Source of the DNA: an uncultured Holophagales bacterium
GTDB taxonomy: Bacteria > Acidobacteriota > Thermoanaerobaculia > UBA5066
DNA: 62,318 bases
Direction: 5' to 3'
Assembly (NCBI GenBank): GCA_964384675.1
Contig: CAYLNK010000004.1
Coordinates: 1 to 62,318 of the forward strand
In this document: piece by piece, positions 1,442-31,257 of the stretch
How positions within the stretch are numbered: position 1 is the stretch's first letter
Layout: every line of letters begins with the position of its first letter
Notes under the pieces: model-generated
Database searches by the model: none
What the model was told of the DNA's origin: nothing
What the model saw: the letters and a program-made list of their open reading frames with translations, nothing else
Made by a program: the position numbers and the translations under genes

Positions 1442-4400
1442 TCAGCGCTTCGCCGCGTCGATCCCGATCCGCCGGGAGGTGGTCTGTGAATGGAGCCCGT
1501 CGTCGTAGAAGTCCTGGAGCCGTGCGACGCCGCTCGCGAAGTCGCCGGCGTGCTGGGCGCGAAGGACGTAGCCCACCTCCCGGGCGCGGTCCATGAAGCC
1601 GTGGTCGAAGGCGAAGAACCAGCGGACGCGGTCCGCGCCGACGTCCCGTCGCGCGACGCCGGCCGCGCGGAGCGGCAGCTTCCACGGCGAGCCTTCGTAG
1701 ATCTTGTCCTCCTCCACCACCGAGAGTCCCGCGGGCACCTGGTCGGAAAGGACGTAGTACGACGAGCCCCACCAGCTGCGACGCGGCCCGCGCTCGAAGC
1801 GCAGCCTCACGTAGACGAGGTCGCCCACGGCCAGGCGGCCGGTGAGCGGGCTCGTCGCACCGGTCTTCGGGTCGAGCCGGAACCACTCGCGCGTCAGGCC
1901 GAGCGGCCCCTTCACCTCGGACGCGTTCGCGAGCGGCTCCTCCCACGTGACGCGGGCGTGGAGCCGCGAGCCGGCGGGAGCGCCGGAGACGACGAGCGGT
2001 CCGGTCGCACCGTCGGGGACGCGCAGCGTGAGGGAGAGACCGCCCGGCGTGCGGACCGTCGTCACCGCGCTCTCGGCGACGGGGTGCCCGCCGAGCGTGA
2101 GCCGGAGCGCCGCGGGATCCGCCACGTCGGCCTCGGAGGCGAGGACTGACGCCGTGCTCGCGAGGACGAGCGACGTCTCGAACGTGGAGCCGAACGTGGC
2201 GCCGTCGAACGAGGCGAGGAGGCGGCGCGCCAGCGCGCGCGCGTCGGCGGCGGGAAGCTGGCCGTACGCCTGGAGCGCGCGGCCGGCGACCGCGAGCGTC
2301 GACTCGACGCGGCCCGGATATGTGTCCCAGGTGGAGGCGAGCGGCGTCACGCGAGCGGGCTCGATCGCGCCCGCCTTCTTCACCTCCTGCTCCACCGCGG
2401 CGCGTGCGGACGCGAGGAGCGGCCGGGCGAGCGGCTCGAGGCCCTTCAGGCCGGAGTCGTGGAGCGCGAGGAGGAGGAGCGACTGCTCGAGGAGGGTGCC
2501 GCTCGCGGCGACCTTCTCCGCCTGGAACCGCAGGCGCGATTCCAGCGACGTGCCGGCGCCGGACGAGATCCCGAGCGCGACGAAGCGCGCCTCGACGAAG
2601 GAGAGCGTCACGGCGCGGGGGCCGTCGCTCTCGGGGACGCGGGCCGCCAGCCAGCCGAGCGCCTTCTTCGCGTCGATGGCGCGGAGTGGACCAGCTTCGT
2701 CGAGCGAGGAGAGGAGGAGGAGCACGACGGCCGTCATCGAGACGTTGCCGCGCCCGTCGCCGGGCCAGAAGACGAAGGAGCCGTCGGCGTTCTGGAGCGC
2801 CTTCAGGCGCGCCACACCGACCGCGGAGAGCTCGCGCGCGTTGCGCAGCGTCTCGCTGGGGTCCGACGCCGTCGCGCCCGCCAGGAAGCGCTTGCGCACA
2901 CCGGGCACGGGCGATGCCTCTCCCGCCGGCGCGCCGTCGCGTCCGCCGAGCGCGTCGCGCACGACGATCGCCGAGACCGTCTGGCTCGTCACCTGCTCCG
3001 CGCAGCCGTACGGGTACTGGAGGAACCAGTCGAGCGACGGCGCGAGCGCGGCGAGGAGGCTCGTCGCGATGCCGACGCGCACCTCGCGGGCGGTCGCGCC
3101 CGGATGGTCGACCGGGATCGATTCGCCCGGTGCGACGCCGAGCGAGTCGACGTGCGACACGGTGCCGGGGAGCGTGCGGACCGGCTGGTCGAAGGGCACC
3201 GGGTTGGCGCCGTCGATCCGGAGCGTGGCGGCGAGACGCACCTCGCCCTTCGGGTCGACCTTCGACAGGACGTACGTCCCGCGGCCCGACGCCTCGGCGT
3301 TCGGGGCGAGCGTGGACGAGAGGTCGAGCGGCGTCCTCGCGGTCACGCCAGCGGGTGTCGCCACGTTGACGGCGACGGCGTGCGGCTTCGCGGTGCGGTT
3401 CGAGACCAGGACGCGCGCCTGCGTCTCGTCCCCCACGCGGAGGAAGACCGGCGCGGCGAGGGAGAGCGTCACCGGGGAGTTGGTCCCGAACTCGGCGTGC
3501 CCCTCGCCGAAGCGGCCCGACGTGTCGGCCGCGACCGCGGTGACGTGCCACGTCGTCTGGTTCGCGGGGAGGCGGAACGAGACCGTCGCGCGCCCGTCGG
3601 GGCCGGTGGTGACGCGGGCGTTCCAGTACGCGGTGTCCTCCTCCTTCGGGTTCTTCTTCGGCTTCGTCGCCGCCATCCAGTAGTTCGGCGCGAAGCGCGA
3701 CGCGAGGCGCTCGCCGTAGCCGTAGCCCTGGAACTCGCGGCTGTAGAACGTCATCAGGTTGAGCCGCTCGAGCGGGTAGAAGAACTCGAGGAGCGGCGGG
3801 CGGAACTCCGGCGCGAGGTCGAGGACGGCCTTGTCGACGACCGAGAGCGACAGCTCGGCCTCCACCGGCTTGCCGGCGGCGTCGGTGACGCGGAGCGTCA
3901 CGCCTTGCCGCTTGCCGGGCGCCACGAGCGCGGCGTGCGGCGAGACGGCGACCGTCAGGCTCCGGTCGCGGGGCGGGATCCGGAACGTGAGCGTCCGCTC
4001 CACCCAGCCGCGAGCCGGATCGGGGTACGCGACGAGGCACGAGACGGCCGTCCCCCACGCGCCGGAGACCGGCTCGGTGATCCAGGTGGTGAGCCCGTCG
4101 ACGGGCTGCACGCGGTGCGAGTGGATGCGCCGTCCCGCGAACGTCAGGTGGAGACGTCCCTTGTTCGTGCCTCCCTCGCCCCACCCCTCGGGGAGGAGGA
4201 GGAGCGCGCGTGCCGTCTCCTTCGGACCGAGCACCTCGCGCTCCGGGAGGGCGACGAGCTCGGAGACGTCCGCCAGCGGCTCGCCCGCCTTCGCCGAGGC
4301 GACGACGAGCGAAGCCTCCGCGGTGGTGGCGCGCCCGGCGCGGTCCTTCAGCGTGACGACGACGTCCAGCTTCCCCGGCGCGTTCGTCGGCACCGGCAGC

Positions 4401-6259
4401 TCGAACCGCCCGTTCTCTCCGGTCGTGAACGGGACGCGGGTCGTGACCGGCGGTCGCCTGTACGGCGTGAGCGTGAAGGCCGCCTCGCCCGACGTCTTGC
4501 CGTACGGCTTGCCGGACGGCAGCACGGCCCGGATCGAGAGCGTCGTGGGGTGCGAGGGCGACGCGTAGACGCCCGACGCGCGCACGAGGGCCACCGCCTC
4601 GCTCCGCCGGTCGGCGAAGCTGCGGGAGAGGCCGGCGACGTTGCCGTCCGGGTCCTTCGCGAAGAGCTTCAGGAGGAGCTTGTAGTCGAAGTTGGGCGGA
4701 CCGGGGAGTGTCTCGGGAAGCGAGAGCTCGAGCGTGGAATGACCCGCCTCGTCGAACGCCAGGTCCTCCACGCTCGTCACGAGGTACGGCACGATCGCCG
4801 TCTCACCCTTGGCGTCCCAGCCGTACGTCGTCGCGCTGCCGCTTTCGCCGAGGCCGGCGTCCTCCACCCAGGCGGGCGTCTCGGCCCGCACGCGGAAGAG
4901 CTGCGCGCCGTACGTGACGCCCTGGGGGACGCCGCCCGCGTACCGCTCCACGGAGACGGTCGCCTTCAGCGTCTCGCCCGCGCGGAGCGTCTCGGCGTCG
5001 GTCGCGAGCTTCAGGAGGAAGATCGGCTTGACGTACTGCTTCACCCGGATCTCGCCCGAGTGCTTCGCCTCGCCGAGCGTCGCGACGACGCGGTAGACGC
5101 CGTTCAGCTCCTGGTCGCCGAGCGGCAGCTCGCCGCTGAACGTCCCGAAGCGTGAGATCGGGGCCTCCACGTCGGTGACCACGGTGCTGCCGGTGAGGTC
5201 GACCAGCTGGACCGTCGCCTTGGTCGGCGCGGGTGTGCCGCCGAGACCGCCGAGGAGACGGCTGCGTCCTTCGACCGGCTCCCGCAGGATGCCGCGGAAC
5301 TTCACGACGTTCCCCCGCTTGTAGAGCGGCCGGTCGGTGTAGAGGTAGACGTCGGGGAAGAGCGCGGTGGTGGGGAAGAACTCCGTGTCGATGATCGCGA
5401 CGTCCTTTCCGTCGCGCACCACCGCGAGGAGCTCGCTCCCGTTCACGTCGAGCTGGAGGACGCCGTCGGCGTCGGTCTTTCCCTTCGCCACGAACTTCCC
5501 CTGCAGGTTCCGCACGTCGACGGTGGCTCCGGGGAGCGGCCGCCCGTCGCGGCGCGCCACGCGGACGAGCGCCGCGCCGTCTGTCTGCTGGAGCTCGGCC
5601 GTCACGTCGTTCACGACGAGGACGACCTGTCCCTCGAGGTCTCCCTGGAGCACCTGCACGAGGTAGAAGCCGCTGCCGAGCTTCGGCAGCGAGACGGTCC
5701 TCTGCCGGAGGCTCCCGGAGCGCGAGAACCACCAGGCGAAGCCGGGGACGTCGAACGGCGCGGCGGCGTCCTCGGCGTCCGGGAAGAACGCCAGCTCGGT
5801 GACGAGCTCGAATCCGTCGGGCGTGGCGATCAGCTTCTCGGGTCCCTCCGCCAGCTTCGTGCCGCGCGACGAGAAGCTCCCGCCGCCCAGCTCCGGCGCG
5901 AGGCGCTTCCTCATCGGCGCGTCGACGGCGTCCCGCAGCCAGTCGAGAGCGAGCGAGCTGTGGTTGAGCCCCTGGAAGAGGAGTCGCGCGCTGTTCGTCT
6001 CCAGGCGCGGCTGGCGCCACGCGCGGCGGAGGTCGATCTGCTCGGCGACGAAGGAGTCGAGGTCTTTCGGGCGGAGCACGCGGAACGTGAACGGGGCGGA
6101 ATTCGTGTAGTGGACGTCCACCTCCGGCTGCTCGTTCGGACCGAAGTCGCGGCGGACCGTGAGGTACACCTCCTTGGCCTCGAGCGCGGCGGCCGGCGCG
6201 AGGAGGAGGAGCGAGGCGAGGGCGGGGACGAGGAGGCGCGCGGGGCGCGGGCGGGTCAT
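1442..6259 (-). CDS. Bacterial alpha-2-macroglobulin (YfaS/MagD type), ~1605 aa
   Basis: Thioester motif YPYGCAEQ (CAEQ at 2993-3004). MG-domain signatures YLYTDRPLYKRG and TAYWNARVTTGPDGRATVSFRLP. Sec signal MTRPRPARLLVPALASLLLLAPAAA with no lipobox Cys. ATG at 6259 overlaps the upstream stop (ATGA). Confidence 0.95.
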   Translation of the reverse strand: MTRPRPARLLVPALASLLLLAPAAALEAKEVYLTVRRDFGPNEQPEVDVHYTNSAPFTFRVLRPKDLDSFVAEQIDLRRAWRQPRLETNSARLLFQGLNHSSLALDWLRDAVDAPMRKRLAPELGGGSFSSRGTKLAEGPEKLIATPDGFELVTELAFFPDAEDAAAPFDVPGFAWWFSRSGSLRQRTVSLPKLGSGFYLVQVLQGDLEGQVVLVVNDVTAELQQTDGAALVRVARRDGRPLPGATVDVRNLQGKFVAKGKTDADGVLQLDVNGSELLAVVRDGKDVAIIDTEFFPTTALFPDVYLYTDRPLYKRGNVVKFRGILREPVEGRSRLLGGLGGTPAPTKATVQLVDLTGSTVVTDVEAPISRFGTFSGELPLGDQELNGVYRVVATLGEAKHSGEIRVKQYVKPIFLLKLATDAETLRAGETLKATVSVERYAGGVPQGVTYGAQLFRVRAETPAWVEDAGLGESGSATTYGWDAKGETAIVPYLVTSVEDLAFDEAGHSTLELSLPETLPGPPNFDYKLLLKLFAKDPDGNVAGLSRSFADRRSEAVALVRASGVYASPSHPTTLSIRAVLPSGKPYGKTSGEAAFTLTPYRRPPVTTRVPFTTGENGRFELPVPTNAPGKLDVVVTLKDRAGRATTAEASLVVASAKAGEPLADVSELVALPEREVLGPKETARALLLLPEGWGEGGTNKGRLHLTFAGRRIHSHRVQPVDGLTTWITEPVSGAWGTAVSCLVAYPDPARGWVERTLTFRIPPRDRSLTVAVSPHAALVAPGKRQGVTLRVTDAAGKPVEAELSLSVVDKAVLDLAPEFRPPLLEFFYPLERLNLMTFYSREFQGYGYGERLASRFAPNYWMAATKPKKNPKEEDTAYWNARVTTGPDGRATVSFRLPANQTTWHVTAVAADTSGRFGEGHAEFGTNSPVTLSLAAPVFLRVGDETQARVLVSNRTAKPHAVAVNVATPAGVTARTPLDLSSTLAPNAEASGRGTYVLSKVDPKGEVRLAATLRIDGANPVPFDQPVRTLPGTVSHVDSLGVAPGESIPVDHPGATAREVRVGIATSLLAALAPSLDWFLQYPYGCAEQVTSQTVSAIVVRDALGGRDGAPAGEASPVPGVRKRFLAGATASDPSETLRNARELSAVGVARLKALQNADGSFVFWPGDGRGNVSMTAVVLLLLSSLDEAGPLRAIDAKKALGWLAARVPESDGPRAVTLSFVEARFVALGISSGAGTSLESRLRFQAEKVAASGTLLEQSLLLLALHDSGLKGLEPLARPLLASARAAVEQEVKKAGAIEPARVTPLASTWDTYPGRVESTLAVAGRALQAYGQLPAADARALARRLLASFDGATFGSTFETSLVLASTASVLASEADVADPAALRLTLGGHPVAESAVTTVRTPGGLSLTLRVPDGATGPLVVSGAPAGSRLHARVTWEEPLANASEVKGPLGLTREWFRLDPKTGATSPLTGRLAVGDLVYVRLRFERGPRRSWWGSSYYVLSDQVPAGLSVVEEDKIYEGSPWKLPLRAAGVARRDVGADRVRWFFAFDHGFMDRAREVGYVLRAQHAGDFASGVARLQDFYDDGLHSQTTSRRIGIDAAKR

Positions 6260-26281: not shown

Positions 26282-26916
26282 GGGGCCGATTCTGCACGCG
26301 CCCGGGCCAGGAGGTAGCACCTCCGGCTCGGGTGCTCGACGCCCTCGTACGGCTCGCGCTCCGTCACCTCGAGGACACGCAGTCCCGCGCCCTCGAGCGC
26401 GCGCCGGACCGTCTCCACGGGGAAGAAGCGGAAGTCGAGGGAGACGGCCCGTCCGAACAGCTCCTCCCGATGCACGGTCTCGGTCCCGACGTGGAAGGCG
26501 AGGAGGAGGACGCCGCCCGGCGCCAGGACGCGCCGCCACTCGCGGAGCGCCCTCGAGAGCTCGTCGTCGGAGAGGTGCACGATCGCGTAGAAGGAGACGA
26601 CCCCGGCGAGCGAGGCGTCGGGCACGTCGAGCGCCAGCATGTCCGCCTCGCGGAAGGGTGCGCCCGGCGAGAGGGCGGCGGCCGTCGCGACCATCCCGGG
26701 CGAGAGGTCGGTGCCGGTGACGCGCACGCCGAGGTCGTGGAGGTACCGCGCCACCTGTCCGGGGCCGCAGCCCACCTCGAGCACCGCCCCCTCCCCCACC
26801 TCCTCCGCGAAGCGTCCGAGGAGATGGCGGTCGAGCGGCTTGGCGTCCAGCTCGCGGAACAGGTGCTCGGCGTAGGCCGTCGCGACGGCGTCGTAGCTCT
26901 CGCGGACGCGGGACAT
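26278..26916 (-). CDS. Class I SAM-dependent methyltransferase
   Basis: VLEVGCGPG, GTDLSPGMV, FREADML, SFYAIVH. Confidence 0.9.
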   Translation of the reverse strand: MSRVRESYDAVATAYAEHLFRELDAKPLDRHLLGRFAEEVGEGAVLEVGCGPGQVARYLHDLGVRVTGTDLSPGMVATAAALSPGAPFREADMLALDVPDASLAGVVSFYAIVHLSDDELSRALREWRRVLAPGGVLLLAFHVGTETVHREELFGRAVSLDFRFFPVETVRRALEGAGLRVLEVTEREPYEGVEHPSRRCYLLARARAESAP

Positions 26917-26980
26917 GTCCCAGGATCGCACGGAGACATGGGCGCCGGAACCGTGGCAGAGTCGCGCCAGGAGGAGATCG

Positions 26981-27988
26981 ATGCTCGGCAACGTCCTGCT
27001 CCTGGCCCTCTCTCTGAACGGTGAACCCTCGACCGCACCAGCGGCCGCGCCGGCGGCTCCCGAGGCGGCCGGACGCGAGTGCACGCGTCTCTTCTACGCC
27101 GGCGCGCTGGATACCCTCTGGGCCCGCTTCACGCCGGAGATGAAGGCCGCGCTCAAGAGCGTGGAGAACCTGAAGTCGTTCCGCGACGGCGTCAGCGCCC
27201 AGCTCGGTGTGGAGACCTCGGTTGTGAGCGAGAAGATGGACGAGGTCTCCGGCTGGTCGGTGTACGTCCGTCGCGCGCGCTTCGAGAAGGCTCCGGTGGA
27301 GGTCGCCGTGCAGTGGAGCCTCGATGCGAAGGGGGCCATCGGCGGCTTCTTCATCCGGCCCGCGGACCCGCCGAAGGAGGCGCTGACGAAGCACCTCGCG
27401 TACCAGACGAAGACCTCTCTGCGGCTGCCGTTCACGGGCGAGTGGTTCGTGTTCTGGGGCGGCCGGACGGTGGCCGAGAACTACCACGCGGCGACCGTCG
27501 ACCAGCGCTTCGCGTACGACCTCGTCGTGATGAAGGGCGGGAAGACGCACCCCGAGGGGAAGGCCGCGAACGAGGACCACTACGCGTACGGCCAGCCGAT
27601 CCTCGCGCCGGCCGGCGGGACCGTGACGGTCGCGGTGGACGGCATCGCGGACAACGTCCCGGGAGTCATGAACGCGTCGGCGCCGCCCGGCAATCACGTC
27701 GTCCTCGACCACGGGAACGGTGAGTTCTCGCTCCTGGCGCACTTCAAGCCCGGGACGCTGAAGGTGAAGAAGGGGGATCGCGTGGAGTCGGGCCAGGTCC
27801 TGGGGCTCTGCGGCAACAGCGGGAACTCGAGCGAGCCGCACCTCCACTACCACCTGCAGAACGGGCCGGCCTTCCACGAGGGCGAGGGGCTGCCGGCCCC
27901 GTTCGTCGACTACGAGGCGGACGGCAAGCCGGTGTCGCGCGGCGAGCCGGTGAAGGGACAGACGATCCGGCCCGCCGCGAAGAAGTAG
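26981..27988 (+). CDS. M23 family metallopeptidase with N-terminal DUF3887-like domain
   Basis: Strong SD AGGAGG before ATG 26981; signal peptide; PILAPAGGTV, GNHVVLDHGNGEFSLLAH, CGNSGNSSEPHLHYH. Confidence 0.88.
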   Translation: MLGNVLLLALSLNGEPSTAPAAAPAAPEAAGRECTRLFYAGALDTLWARFTPEMKAALKSVENLKSFRDGVSAQLGVETSVVSEKMDEVSGWSVYVRRARFEKAPVEVAVQWSLDAKGAIGGFFIRPADPPKEALTKHLAYQTKTSLRLPFTGEWFVFWGGRTVAENYHAATVDQRFAYDLVVMKGGKTHPEGKAANEDHYAYGQPILAPAGGTVTVAVDGIADNVPGVMNASAPPGNHVVLDHGNGEFSLLAHFKPGTLKVKKGDRVESGQVLGLCGNSGNSSEPHLHYHLQNGPAFHEGEGLPAPFVDYEADGKPVSRGEPVKGQTIRPAAKK

Positions 27989-27993
27989 GCCGG

Positions 27994-29322
27994 TCAGGCG
28001 GCCGCGCGCGCGAGGTCGGCGAGCGCCGCCTTCTCGTCCGCGTAGAGGTCGAGGACGCGCGCCGAGAGCGACTCGCGGAGCGCCGCCGCCGCGCCGGCCG
28101 AGAGGGGGAACTCCTCCGTGGGCGCCTTGCCGAGTCCGTCGAGGCCTTTCCAGGCCTCACGGACCTCCTCGGTCGCGGAGGCGCCGCCGGCATGGAAGAG
28201 CTCGGCCTTCCGCTCCAGCCGCTCCCGCGTCGCTCGGAGCGCCGGGACGTCGTCGGGGAGCGCCGCCCTCGCCACCTCGGTCCAGCGGCGTCCGAGGTCG
28301 GCGTACCGCTTCCCGAGCGCCCGGAGGCGCGCGTCGCCGAGGACGTCCGCCGCCTCGTCGAGGAACTCCGCCATCAGCGGTCTCGCCAGCCCGCCGCCCG
28401 ACCAGCTCTCGGCGAACTCGTAGATCGACCAGAGGCCGCGCCACAGACGGGGGCCGGGCGGGAAGATCACGTCCCAGCCGTCCTTCCCCTTCCCGCCGCG
28501 GAGGCTCTCGCCCCAGATCCGGAACGCCTCGATCGTGCAGTTTTTCATCCGGCCGTTCGCGAGGCCGTCGGCGCACGCCGCGAGACCGGACTTCACGGCC
28601 GCCTTCACGTCGACGGCGCCGCCGCGCGCCGGTAGCCAGAGGACGCGGCTCCTGTCCTTCTTGATCCGTGCCCGCGCGGCGTCGAGGTCCGCGAGCGGCA
28701 CGGGGATCGGCTCGTCGGCGAGGTCGCCCACCAGGGCCGCCGCGCCGTCGACGCGGTAGACGGTGAGGAGGTGGTAGCCGCCCCCCTGCCAGTAGGCGGG
28801 CAGGCCGCGGTACGGGAGCGTCGCCATGTCGACCCAGGCGATCGCGGGGCCCGCGGCGGTGGCTTCCGCGAGCGCCTTCGACGCGGCCGCCTTGCCGCCC
28901 GACTCCTTGACGGTCGGCGTGACGCCGAAGCGGGCGCACGCCTCCTTCAGCCAGGCGAGGTCGTCGTACCAGAGGTGCCGTCCCGCCACGAAGAAGCTGG
29001 AGAAGTCGGCCGCCTGGTAGTTGAAGGCGAAGCTCCCCGCGCCGACGCCGCCGCCGATGCCGAAGACCATCGCCTCGGTGAACGGCTCCTTCGTGTGCGG
29101 CGCCACGACGCCGGCGTGGGCGAGGAGGATGCGGAGCGCGGTCGCGATCGGATTGCTGCCGGGGAAGTGGACGAGGGAAGTGCCGGCCGGGCTCGCGGCG
29201 ACGACGGGTCTCGCGGACGCCGGCGAGGCGCCGACGACGTGGCGCCGAGCGGTGGCGTAGCTCTCCCCGGTCTTGGCCATGCGGGCGCGGACCCGCTCCT
29301 TCAGGTGCTTCTGTGTGGTCAT
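27994..29322 (-). CDS. BtrH N-terminal/DUF4872-like protein with N-terminal MTTQKHLKERVRARMAKTGESY motif
   Basis: EAMVFGIGGGVGAG, IAWVDMATLPY, GYHLLTVY, SGGGLARPLMAEFLDEAA resemble the BtrH_N/DUF4872 family. SD AAGGAG upstream. Confidence 0.7.
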   Translation of the reverse strand: MTTQKHLKERVRARMAKTGESYATARRHVVGASPASARPVVAASPAGTSLVHFPGSNPIATALRILLAHAGVVAPHTKEPFTEAMVFGIGGGVGAGSFAFNYQAADFSSFFVAGRHLWYDDLAWLKEACARFGVTPTVKESGGKAAASKALAEATAAGPAIAWVDMATLPYRGLPAYWQGGGYHLLTVYRVDGAAALVGDLADEPIPVPLADLDAARARIKKDRSRVLWLPARGGAVDVKAAVKSGLAACADGLANGRMKNCTIEAFRIWGESLRGGKGKDGWDVIFPPGPRLWRGLWSIYEFAESWSGGGLARPLMAEFLDEAADVLGDARLRALGKRYADLGRRWTEVARAALPDDVPALRATRERLERKAELFHAGGASATEEVREAWKGLDGLGKAPTEEFPLSAGAAAALRESLSARVLDLYADEKAALADLARAAA

Positions 29323-29450
29323 GGGCCTCGGGCTCCTTTTTCGAATCGGCACGGAGAGCGACCGGAGCCTGCGCCTCCACGCTCCCCGCCGGTCGAAAAA
29401 GCGCGACCCACGGTCCTCGAGGAAAGGATCCCCTTTGCCCCCGCTGGCCG
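29323..29450 (-). promoter_or_regulatory. Structured 5' leader (candidate cis-regulatory RNA) of the BtrH-like gene
   Basis: Long hairpin 29336-29401 whose basal stem overlaps the SD; alternative pairing 29359-29365/29389-29395; further hairpins at 29405-29415 and 29423-29436. Confidence 0.55.
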
Positions 29451-29577
29451 GGCCGCGCAGGGGCCCGATCGGGGGTGAGGCGGGAGGCGCCGCCAGGAGC
29501 AGATCGTGTCGCAGCGGGACGTCGCGCGTCAAGAGACGGCCCGGCCAGGGACCCGTCGCAAGCGCTACGCTCCCGCC

Positions 29578-31257
29578 ATGTCCGTCTACGACCTCGCCCC
29601 CGTGCGCCTGCCACGCCTCGCCGGCTCCACGTTCGCCCTCTTCGTGCGCCTCCTCGAGACGGCCTTTCCGGGGCGCCTCCTGGTGGGCAAGACGCTCTCC
29701 GACATGGGTGTCCCGGCGCTCCGGAGTCTCGTCGTCGACGAGCCGCCCTCGTTCCTGCCGGCGTGGCCGGCGCCTCCGGCGGCCGGGCCGGAGCCCCCGC
29801 CGTCGCTTCCGCCGTGGGGCGAGGGGACGCGGGCCGGATTCCTGGCCCCGTCCGCCGAGGACTTCGTCGAGGCGTACCGGAGCGGCCGCACCACGCCGGA
29901 GGCCGTCGCCGAGAGGGCGCTCACGGCGATCGTGGCGAGCGACCGGGCGGCACCGGCCCTCCGGGCGTTCGTCGCCGTCCGGCGTGACGACGTGATGACG
30001 CTGGCCCGCGCCTCGACCGCGCGCTGGAAGGAGGGGAGCCCGCTCGGCCCCCTCGACGGCGTTCCGGTCGGCGTGAAGGACGAGCTCGACGTGGCCGGCT
30101 ACCCGACCACGGTCGGGACGAGCTTTCTCGGCCGGGAGGTCTCGCGGGACGACGCCACGGCGGCGGCGCGCCTCCGGGCCGCGGGGGCGGTGATCCTGGG
30201 CAAGACCAACATGCACGAGATCGGGATCGGCGTGACGGGCTTCAACACGCCGCACGGCACGGCACGCAATCCGCACGCGCCGGGCCATTACACGGGCGGT
30301 AGCTCGAGCGGCTCGGCGGCCGCCGTGGCGGCGGGCCTCTGTCCCATCGCGGTGGGCGCGGACGCGGGCGGCTCCATCCGTATCCCCTCCACGCTCTGCG
30401 GCGTCGTGGGGCTCAAGCCGACGTTCGGGCGCGTCAGCGGGCGTGGCGCGGCCCCGCTCGCCTGGAGCCTCGATCACTACGGGCCGATCGCGGTCTGCGC
30501 CCGGGACGCCGCGCTCGCCTACGCGGCGATGGCCGGGGTCGACCCGGCGGATCCGCTCACGCGCGGGACGCCCCAGGTCTCGCTCGACGGGCTGGAGACG
30601 GGCGACCTCTCCGGTCTGACCCTCGGGATCTTCCGGCCCTGGTTCGACGACGCGGAGCCGGGTGTCGTACGCGTCTGCCGCGCGCTGGTCGACCGGCTGG
30701 CGGAGCGCGGCGCCCGCGTGGTCGAGGTGGAGCTCCCCGACCTCGGAGCCGCGCGCCTTTCGCACCTCGTCCTCGTGGCGGGCGAGATGGCGACCGCGAT
30801 GGAGCCGTACAGGGCCGGGCACGGGCGGGAGCTGGGGCTCGACGTGCGCGCGAATCTCGCGCTGGCCCGCGCCTTCACCGCGCGCGACTACGTCAAGGCT
30901 CAGCGCGTGAGGACGCGGGTGATGGAGCGCTTCCGGCGCGCTTTCGAGACGGTCGACGCGATCGTGACGCCCGGCACGGGAGTCGCCGCGCCGGCGATCC
31001 GGCCCGACGTCCTTCCACGCGGGGAGTCCGACCTGACGATGCTCCTCGCGATCATGCGTTTCGCGTTCCCGTCGAACCTCACCGGCCACCCGGCCATCGC
31101 GTTCCCGGCCGGGTACGCGGAGGGCGGGCTCCCGGTCGGCCTCCAGGCGATCGGCCGTCCCTGGCACGAGCACGTGCTGCTCCGGATCGCCCGCGTCGCC
31201 GAGACCCTCGTGGAGAGGCGGCGGCCGAAGGTCTTCCACGATCTGCTCGGCGGCTGA
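29578..31257 (+). CDS. Amidase-signature family enzyme (fatty-acid amide hydrolase-like)
   Basis: PLDGVPVGVKD (Lys), TGGSSSGSAAAVAAG, GADAGGSIRIPS (catalytic Ser). Confidence 0.93.
   Translation: MSVYDLAPVRLPRLAGSTFALFVRLLETAFPGRLLVGKTLSDMGVPALRSLVVDEPPSFLPAWPAPPAAGPEPPPSLPPWGEGTRAGFLAPSAEDFVEAYRSGRTTPEAVAERALTAIVASDRAAPALRAFVAVRRDDVMTLARASTARWKEGSPLGPLDGVPVGVKDELDVAGYPTTVGTSFLGREVSRDDATAAARLRAAGAVILGKTNMHEIGIGVTGFNTPHGTARNPHAPGHYTGGSSSGSAAAVAAGLCPIAVGADAGGSIRIPSTLCGVVGLKPTFGRVSGRGAAPLAWSLDHYGPIAVCARDAALAYAAMAGVDPADPLTRGTPQVSLDGLETGDLSGLTLGIFRPWFDDAEPGVVRVCRALVDRLAERGARVVEVELPDLGAARLSHLVLVAGEMATAMEPYRAGHGRELGLDVRANLALARAFTARDYVKAQRVRTRVMERFRRAFETVDAIVTPGTGVAAPAIRPDVLPRGESDLTMLLAIMRFAFPSNLTGHPAIAFPAGYAEGGLPVGLQAIGRPWHEHVLLRIARVAETLVERRRPKVFHDLLGG

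Follow-up and report, generated by a model that had tools for sequence, protein, structure and literature searches.

The window, that is, the whole 62,318-nt stretch of DNA analysed here from an uncultured Holophagales bacterium, carries on its minus strand a gene for a 442-aa protein in which a short N-terminal stretch, referred to below as the N-module, precedes a BtrH_N and a DUF4872 domain. A Peptidase_M23 gene converges on this gene and an amidase gene diverges from it (Table 1), thus the BtrH_N/DUF4872 gene is monocistronic. A Peptidase_M23 gene is also found on the convergent side in a 94% relative (L005), and the neighbours are unrelated in homologues more distant than that. The metagenomes holding the window consist of DNA only; one metatranscriptome contains short contigs from a ~95% relative, and these cover positions 28947-29360 and 29394-29537.

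Upstream of the start codon, a sequence-only reading of this DNA had placed a switch-like RNA hairpin within positions 29323-29450. This span is too narrow, as the conserved element extends to about 29496, 46 nt beyond 29450. As judged from the comparison of homologous sequences, the hairpin is the 3' third of a conserved leader of ~177 nt, 29496-29320 on the minus strand, whose parts are listed in Table 1. The 5' limit is set by promoter-like boxes. A TANNNT motif ends 4-11 nt (peak 7-8) upstream of helix S1 in most of 96 leaders and is rare at other offsets (at most two per offset), and TTGAC-like words are concentrated 33-41 nt ahead of S1 in the homologous leaders. The fixed distance of these -35-like and -10-like boxes points to an RNA start at ~29496 (29497-29495), by which 29496-29320 is predicted to be the complete 5' untranslated region of the BtrH_N/DUF4872 gene.

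Table 1. Genes, promoter-like boxes and RNA elements around the leader. Positions are those of the window; RNA strands are given 5' to 3' on the minus strand.
Feature	Position	Strand	Sequence or content	Basis or remark
Peptidase_M23 gene	26915-27988	plus		convergent with the leader's gene
Regulated gene (442 aa, P0001)	27994-29322	minus	N-module, BtrH_N (61-200), DUF4872 (214-354)	
N-module coding region, residues 1-28	29239-29322	minus	MTTQKHLKERVRARMAKTGESYATARRH	
Amidase gene	29569-31257	plus		divergent from the leader's gene
-35-like hexamer	29527-29532	minus	TTGACG	sequence; not called by a strict consensus scan
-10-like hexamer	29503-29508	minus	CACGAT	18-nt spacer; family position
S1 hairpin	29494-29490 / 29483-29479	minus	GGCGG / CCGCC, loop CGCCUC	comparative alignment
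PK2	29487-29484 / 29418-29415	minus	CCUC in the S1 loop / GAGG directly 3' of P4	comparative alignment
S3, encloses S2	29475-29471 / 29442-29438	minus	CCCCC / GGGGG	comparative alignment
S2	29468-29462 / 29454-29448	minus	UCGGGCC / GGCCCGG	comparative alignment
S2 apical loop, 5' kissing-loop partner	29461-29455	minus	CCUGCGC	complement downstream
P4 hairpin	29433-29428 / 29424-29419	minus	GGGGAU / UUCCUC	comparative alignment
Long 3' hairpin (Pa-Pd, including CGGC/GCCG)	29321-29411	minus		fold
Pa	29411-29405 / 29327-29321	minus	GUGGGUC / GGCCCAU	fold
Pb, 9-bp stem of the sequence-only reading	29401-29393 / 29344-29336	minus	CUUUUUCGA / UCGAAAAAG	fold
Pc	29387-29380 / 29360-29353	minus	GGGGAGCG / CGCUCUCC	fold
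Pd	29378-29375 / 29367-29364	minus	GGAG / CUCC	fold and alignment
Apical loop, 3' kissing-loop partner	29374-29368	minus	GCGCAGG	reverse complement of 29461-29455
Shine-Dalgarno (SD) sequence	29333-29338	minus	AAGGAG	sequence; partly paired in Pb
Start codon	29320-29322	minus	AUG	paired in Pa; P(unpaired) <0.02

When the entire leader is folded without constraints, S1, S3/S2, P4 and the 3' hairpin are all present in the minimum free energy (MFE) structure. The sequence-only reading was right about the core of this hairpin: the two arms of Pb are exact complements on the minus strand, form a pair that occurs once in the window and in none of 100 shuffles, and are stacked, as it had described, on CGGC/GCCG, Pc and Pd, all of which the MFE fold contains. 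The 72-nt hairpin has a folding energy of -37.6 kcal/mol (z -2.95), a value equalled by one of 200 shuffles; the folding energy of the 141-nt span considered by that reading is by itself unremarkable (z -0.95), as expected for DNA of ~75% G+C. Sequestration of the SD by the stem was borne out for the AAG of AAGGAG, which is paired, but not for the central GA, which is ~90% unpaired in this window. The two further hairpins proposed upstream gave way to other pairings. AAAGG-GGAU-CCUUU is specific to the window, and the family-wide helix at its place is P4, GGGGAU/(G/U)UCCUC, while GACC/GGUC overlaps PK2 (GAGG) and stem Pa (GUGGGUC) according to the comparative data. What had been missed altogether was the conserved 5' domain with its pseudoknot, and the 7-bp kissing loop, which covaries and joins this domain to the hairpin tip.

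These elements emerged from the comparison of homologous loci. An ~80-nt block upstream of the hairpin is common to four homologues from Bacillota, Planctomycetota, Gemmatimonadota and Chloroflexota, and an exact-pattern scan of metagenome contigs for this block returned at least 120 loci. In nearly all matches listed, the block lies 85-160 nt before a gene start and the product aligns with the 442-aa protein from residue 1. Two pattern matches, L055 and L063, lie in unrelated coding sequence and were rejected as homologues by a covariance model. The covariance model of the 5' domain scores 74.9 bits (E 5e-12) at its one copy in the 62-kb window, where the next hit has 12 bits, and among 134 loci scanned there is one copy per true related locus.

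The kissing loop is one of the two long-range pairings. Among the matches listed, an exact 7-nt complement of the leader's own S2 loop is found downstream in 98 of 112 unique leaders. The family consensus of this 7-nt loop is CCYRCGC, and its variants among the 98 are CCCACGC (58), CCUGCGC (18), CCUACGC (12) and CCCGCGC (10). Most other intact leaders lacking an exact complement form the kissing pairing through a G.U wobble, and the remaining misses comprise a deletion variant, a broken leader, a 6/7 match, an A.C mismatch and two chance pattern hits. The long-range pairing of the S2 loop is also predicted by RNAalifold, unaided.

For the fold as a whole, an alignment of 30 full-length leaders has 91.1% of its cells paired, compared with 35-51% in slid controls, at a covariation score of 0.276 compared with at most 0.10. 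For 66 5' domains, aligned with a corrected P4 register and PK2, the values are 94.8% against 35-56% and 0.343 against at most 0.104; none of 500 shuffles reaches the observed values, and both partners vary at 17 of the 26 pairs. PK2 has a covariation score of 0.526 and 89% of cells paired, compared with 15-49% in slid controls. Per-helix pairing ranges from 85 to 99% compared with 21-73% in slid controls. In an L-INS-i alignment of 105 leaders, it amounts to 81% for S1 (91.8% in the alignment of 66 5' domains), 96% for PK2, 98.5% for S3, 89.4% for S2 with both-side changes at all seven pairs, 98.9% for P4, 97.7% for the kissing loop and 85% for Pd, where many pair types occur. Compensatory exchange is evident at the PK2 pair 29487-29415 (CG37/GC35/UA17/AU4), at the covarying positions 3 and 4 of the kissing loop (CG71/UA29 and AU72/GC28) and at the innermost pair of S1 (GC20, CG12, UA10, UG5, AU3). 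P4 is near-invariant in the main group and covaries in variant leaders (GGGAGG/CCUCUC and GGGGAA/UUCCUC), the same leaders having new kissing pairs, CCCCAGC/GCUGGGG and CUCACGC/GCGUGAG. Conserved bases are also found outside the helices, with GA, YGA, GCG and YAAA in the junctions and ~20 conserved unpaired bases. Since the invariant G.U of P4 and the frequent U.G of S3 would be A.C mismatches on the opposite strand, the structure belongs to the minus-strand RNA. Covariation among homologous leaders, which the sequence-only reading had named as the point to look at, is thus strong, with more than 100 leaders and many compensatory changes.

The architecture of the 3' hairpin was followed across the family by folding 98 leaders, from the matches listed, with the kissing heptamer held unpaired. 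The heptamer falls in a hairpin loop in 94 of them, with a loop of exactly 7 nt in 74, and is enclosed by a median of 31 bp; the median MFE of the hairpin is -45 kcal/mol compared with -31 kcal/mol for shuffled arms. Full pairing of the SD is found in 51% of leaders and of the AUG in 44%, compared with 18% of controls in both cases, and in the window's leader the AUG is more than 98% paired. The tail bearing the SD and AUG forms a duplex of -18.9 kcal/mol with its own 5' arm and of -13.3 kcal/mol with the arms of unrelated leaders (median rank 0.074). In close relatives, 12 double changes in the 3' hairpin keep pairing and 3 break it, compared with 7 and 18 in controls, and many single changes disrupt predicted pairs. 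This modest compensatory support, together with the pair-breaking single changes, indicates that the hairpin architecture is conserved while the exact stems are loose. The notion of a structured translational leader, riboswitch-like or protein-responsive, therefore stands, with this architecture in 94 of the 98 homologous leaders and the SD and AUG at the base of the hairpin, but the specific local switch attached to it is not supported.

No U-tract terminator follows the minus-strand hairpin, after which the sequence continues with GGAGCCCGAGG. On the plus strand, a terminator-like site at 29323-29335 (a 5-bp stem and CTTTTT) has a frequency near chance; no plus-strand gene ends there, and the site probably arises from the AT-rich arm of Pb. 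The 3' strand of P4 was considered as an alternative partner of the SD and found no support, as the SD does not match the changed strand in L129, the sole variant checked (by eye).

Several leaders depart from the common form. Three loci (L006, L007 and L039, at ~2901-3000) hold a deletion variant in which AAAGGGGAU runs into about codon 5 of the N-module (CAGCAC-UGAAGAAC); it lacks the 3' strand of P4, all of the 3' hairpin and both the SD and the AUG, and the gene is called from the internal Met15. This variant is possibly a decaying copy. In L037 the leader is broken at the site of the kissing heptamer (GGCGCGCGC followed by UGCUACCC), ~60 nt past the motif, with no N-module ORF following, which reflects either a rearrangement or an assembly chimera. 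Within the P4 region (29419-29437, minus strand), the 5' strand AAAGGGGAU is SD-like and the 3' strand GUCCUC is anti-SD-like. Many leaders have an AUG or GUG 5-6 nt after GGGGAU, giving short uORFs in L001 and L004. A uORF starting from P4 (AAAGGGGAU-N-NUG) was nevertheless rejected as a family feature, since its start is AUG, GUG, UUG or CUG, or absent as in the window, and is thus not conserved.

The N-module encoded directly downstream has ~30 residues, is basic and of fixed length, and follows the consensus MTxxKHLKxxVRxRMxKTGExYxxARR with T2, K8, R14, T18, E20, Y22 and R26 invariant. Synonymous codons vary freely at the invariant residues, so that selection acts on the peptide, and a constraint on the RNA inside the coding region was discarded for the same reason. 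The N-module is predicted to be a helical hairpin, the AlphaFold2 model having helices at residues 3-18 and 22-31 (pLDDT 81.6). Among the matches listed, an N-module ORF lies downstream of 98 of the 101 evaluable RNAs (97 counted, and L119 by eye). Of the other three, one RNA precedes a DUF1761 gene (L093) and one an ECF sigma factor gene (L107), and the third is a broken leader. The RNAs of L093 and L107 are complete, with the kissing loop and the SD hairpin present, and no N-module gene occurs elsewhere on these two contigs. The product of L093 is a DUF1761 membrane protein.

The coupling was also followed from the protein side. A search with residues 1-40 found N-module proteins of other architectures, and the RNA lies 75-160 nt upstream in all six of them, namely four DUF1835-like proteins of ~370 aa and two AHSA1 proteins, one of which also contains DUF4287. 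The DUF1835-like label comes from database names only, and Pfam gave no family in the one protein scanned. WD40-fused genes carry the RNA as well (L066, L068 and L102 by sequence, with a Pfam scan on L066). A profile search with the N-module yielded 4002 clusters (50% identity) at E <= 0.001 and 819 at E <= 1e-10. The match falls almost always at residues 1-35 (proteins including P0234-P0382), and the partners include BtrH_N/DUF4872, WD40 and LRR; the N-module is far commoner than the BtrH-like family. No model in Pfam or NCBIfam covers the N-module, a PDB sequence search with it gave nothing, and Foldseek matched no known fold (best E-value 3.3). A resemblance to ribosomal protein bL34 (RARMA) was dropped, as the BLASTP E-value of 0.18 is not significant. 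In L130, an N-module DUF4287 gene is overlapped at its 3' end by a gene on the other strand (3307-5957, minus strand) that encodes a large nSTAND1/AAA_16 and WD40 protein.

The sequence-only reading did not recognise its element as a named family, and Rfam agrees: a cmscan of positions 28800-30100 of the window against Rfam 15 with permissive filters (E <= 10) returned only a chance lncRNA match of 15 bits (gathering threshold 40), and the same search of five related loci gave nothing relevant. In the literature, we found no paper on the leader RNA, DUF4872, KTGESY, or a riboswitch associated with BtrH or DUF1835/DUF4287. The leader pattern has no match in viral contigs, and a phage origin was rejected on this ground. 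On the comparative evidence, the leader belongs to an undescribed family of structured cis-regulatory RNAs present in several bacterial phyla.

Several known systems resemble parts of this leader. In the cobalamin (AdoCbl) riboswitch RF00174, the sensor domain kisses a hairpin bearing the ribosome-binding site and controls translation initiation without a terminator. The leader has an analogous 7-bp loop-loop pairing to its SD hairpin; however, it has no RF00174 match, B12 box or cobalamin genes, its regulatory hairpin has ~31 bp, and its 5' domain is closed by a pseudoknot and not by a multi-helix junction. Autogenous operators such as the L10 and S15 leaders and thrS share with it a structured leader tied to the protein domain encoded just downstream, an occluded or trapped SD and start codon and, in the S15 operator, a pseudoknot. 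The proteins behind the leader, in contrast, are not ribosomal proteins or synthetases, two targets have no N-module, and binding by the N-module is putative. The ColE1 RNA I-RNA II complex likewise pairs two fully complementary 7-nt hairpin loops along their whole length, and its binding by the helical-hairpin protein Rop/Rom offers a possible analogy for the N-module. There, however, the pairing is intermolecular, antisense and serves plasmid replication, whereas here it is intramolecular in an mRNA leader, and the N-module has no sequence or detectable fold similarity to Rop. Finally, orphan riboswitch candidates such as the raiA motif are also large, widespread leaders supported by covariation; the sequence and fold of the leader differ from that motif, and the tie to a portable N-terminal module is distinctive.

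The comparative data show a leader in two parts. Its first ~80 nt form a compact domain of S1, S3/S2 and P4 closed by PK2; the other ~95 nt make up one long, imperfectly paired hairpin whose base contains the SD and AUG and whose tip kisses the S2 loop over 7 nt. The following mechanism would fit this architecture. Docking of the hairpin tip on the 5' domain could lock the hairpin closed and so block 30S binding. The lock would set translation initiation, and an effector acting on the 5' domain or on the kissing complex could strengthen or weaken it.

As to the effector, the reading we favour, while stopping short of calling it probable, is translational control by the encoded N-module itself, i.e., an autogenous feedback operator, as suggested by co-occurrence. 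A little more tentatively, the RNA and the N-module could form a portable RNA-protein cassette in which the N-module, by binding the leader of the mRNA that encodes it, sets its own level of translation. It is conceivable, with the same reserve, that such cassettes represent a new class of autogenous operators found in at least five phyla and ~4000 clusters, independent of the C-terminal domain. As in autogenous leaders generally, the RNA is linked to the gene of its putative binder, and the coupling is near-obligate in both directions (98/101 among the matches listed and 6/6), whatever the C-terminal domain. The fixed length, the invariant Arg/Lys-rich sequence and the predicted helical hairpin of the N-module also point this way. 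On the other hand, complete RNAs precede the module-less DUF1761 (L093) and ECF sigma factor (L107) genes, and two pseudoknots with ~20 conserved unpaired bases are commoner in metabolite aptamers than in protein operators. Co-occurrence would fit equally well if the N-module proteins were the regulon of one small ligand. Moreover, the hairpin alone is very stable (-37 to -52 kcal/mol), which makes its opening hard to explain, the SD core is only partly paired in the window, and the N-module has no detectable relative among known RNA-binding folds.

A small-molecule riboswitch is possible, though rather unlikely; here the pseudoknotted 5' domain would be a metabolite or ion aptamer, and the N-module proteins the regulon of its ligand. 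The ligand might, in a version that we hold to be just as doubtful, pre-organise the S2 loop, so that the kissing loop locks or releases the SD/AUG hairpin in a cobalamin-like manner. Two features generally looked for in a riboswitch are present, namely a complex, strongly covarying fold with two tertiary pairings and conserved junction bases in several phyla, and an expression platform that overlaps both the SD and the AUG; the complete RNAs before the module-less DUF1761 and ECF sigma factor genes also agree with a ligand. However, coherent metabolic or transport genes are absent: the regulated proteins have no common known pathway, their domains are heterogeneous and mostly of unknown function, and they share only the N-module. 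A near-obligate tie to a 30-residue N-terminal module is unlike known riboswitch classes, and neither a closing P1 helix nor a discrete alternative helix was found.

It is unlikely that the leader is a fixed structure that holds down basal translation and shields the 5' end, with no dedicated ligand, and the idea that a general factor opens or cleaves it (RNase III acting on the hairpin, a helicase, temperature or a trans RNA) carries as little weight. The great stability of the hairpin (median -45 kcal/mol), the failure to find any conserved alternative pairing and the position of S1 at the predicted 5' end would suit such a role. Nevertheless, a conserved ~80-nt domain with two covarying tertiary contacts exceeds what occlusion or 5' protection needs, and the link to the N-module would be left unexplained.

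The local two-state switch of the sequence-only reading, in which pairing of CGACCGG (29395-29389) with CCGGUCG (29365-29359) would compete with the 9-bp stem at the base and so release the SD, is very improbable. The two 7-mers are indeed complementary, but release of the SD is not supported. The forced fold has -36.3 kcal/mol compared with -51.8 kcal/mol for the MFE, a cost of +15.5 kcal/mol, and the best fold with the switch helix keeps the AUG and four of the six SD bases (GGAG) paired, which leaves the SD unreleased. The helix would, in addition, disrupt Pd, the stem that presents the conserved kissing loop. Both of its arms are unchanged in L005, the sole close relative, which gives no information either way, and no conserved alternative helix was found in the family. 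A reading without any RNA element, in which the divergent promoter region holds a DNA palindrome or operator, a repeat or a structure arising by chance in GC-rich DNA, is scarcely tenable, since, although the site lies between divergent genes (the amidase gene begins at 29569) and the energy of the 141-nt span is unremarkable, the conserved G.U pairs function only in the minus-strand transcript, covariation keeps pairing and not sequence, and the element occurs in one copy per locus among the loci scanned, at a fixed position relative to the -10 box and the start codon in at least five phyla.

The leader RNA merits an Rfam entry, and cultured actinomycetes, i.e., Paractinoplanes rishiriensis with its leader on BOMV01000026.1, Acrocarpospora corrugata with its leader on BAAABN010000090.1, and Dactylosporangium sp., could serve as a source of the RNA and the peptide. 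If the leader is a riboswitch, it would represent a new, widespread orphan class in which a pseudoknot-closed aptamer kisses the tip of a ~30-bp hairpin that hides the SD and AUG. Should the N-module prove to be the effector, it would be a new small RNA-binding domain, and together with its leader a portable self-regulating cassette attached to thousands of uncharacterised proteins (BtrH-like, DUF1835-like, DUF4287, WD40 and LRR). With either effector, the leader would offer a starting point for the study of several domains of unknown function.
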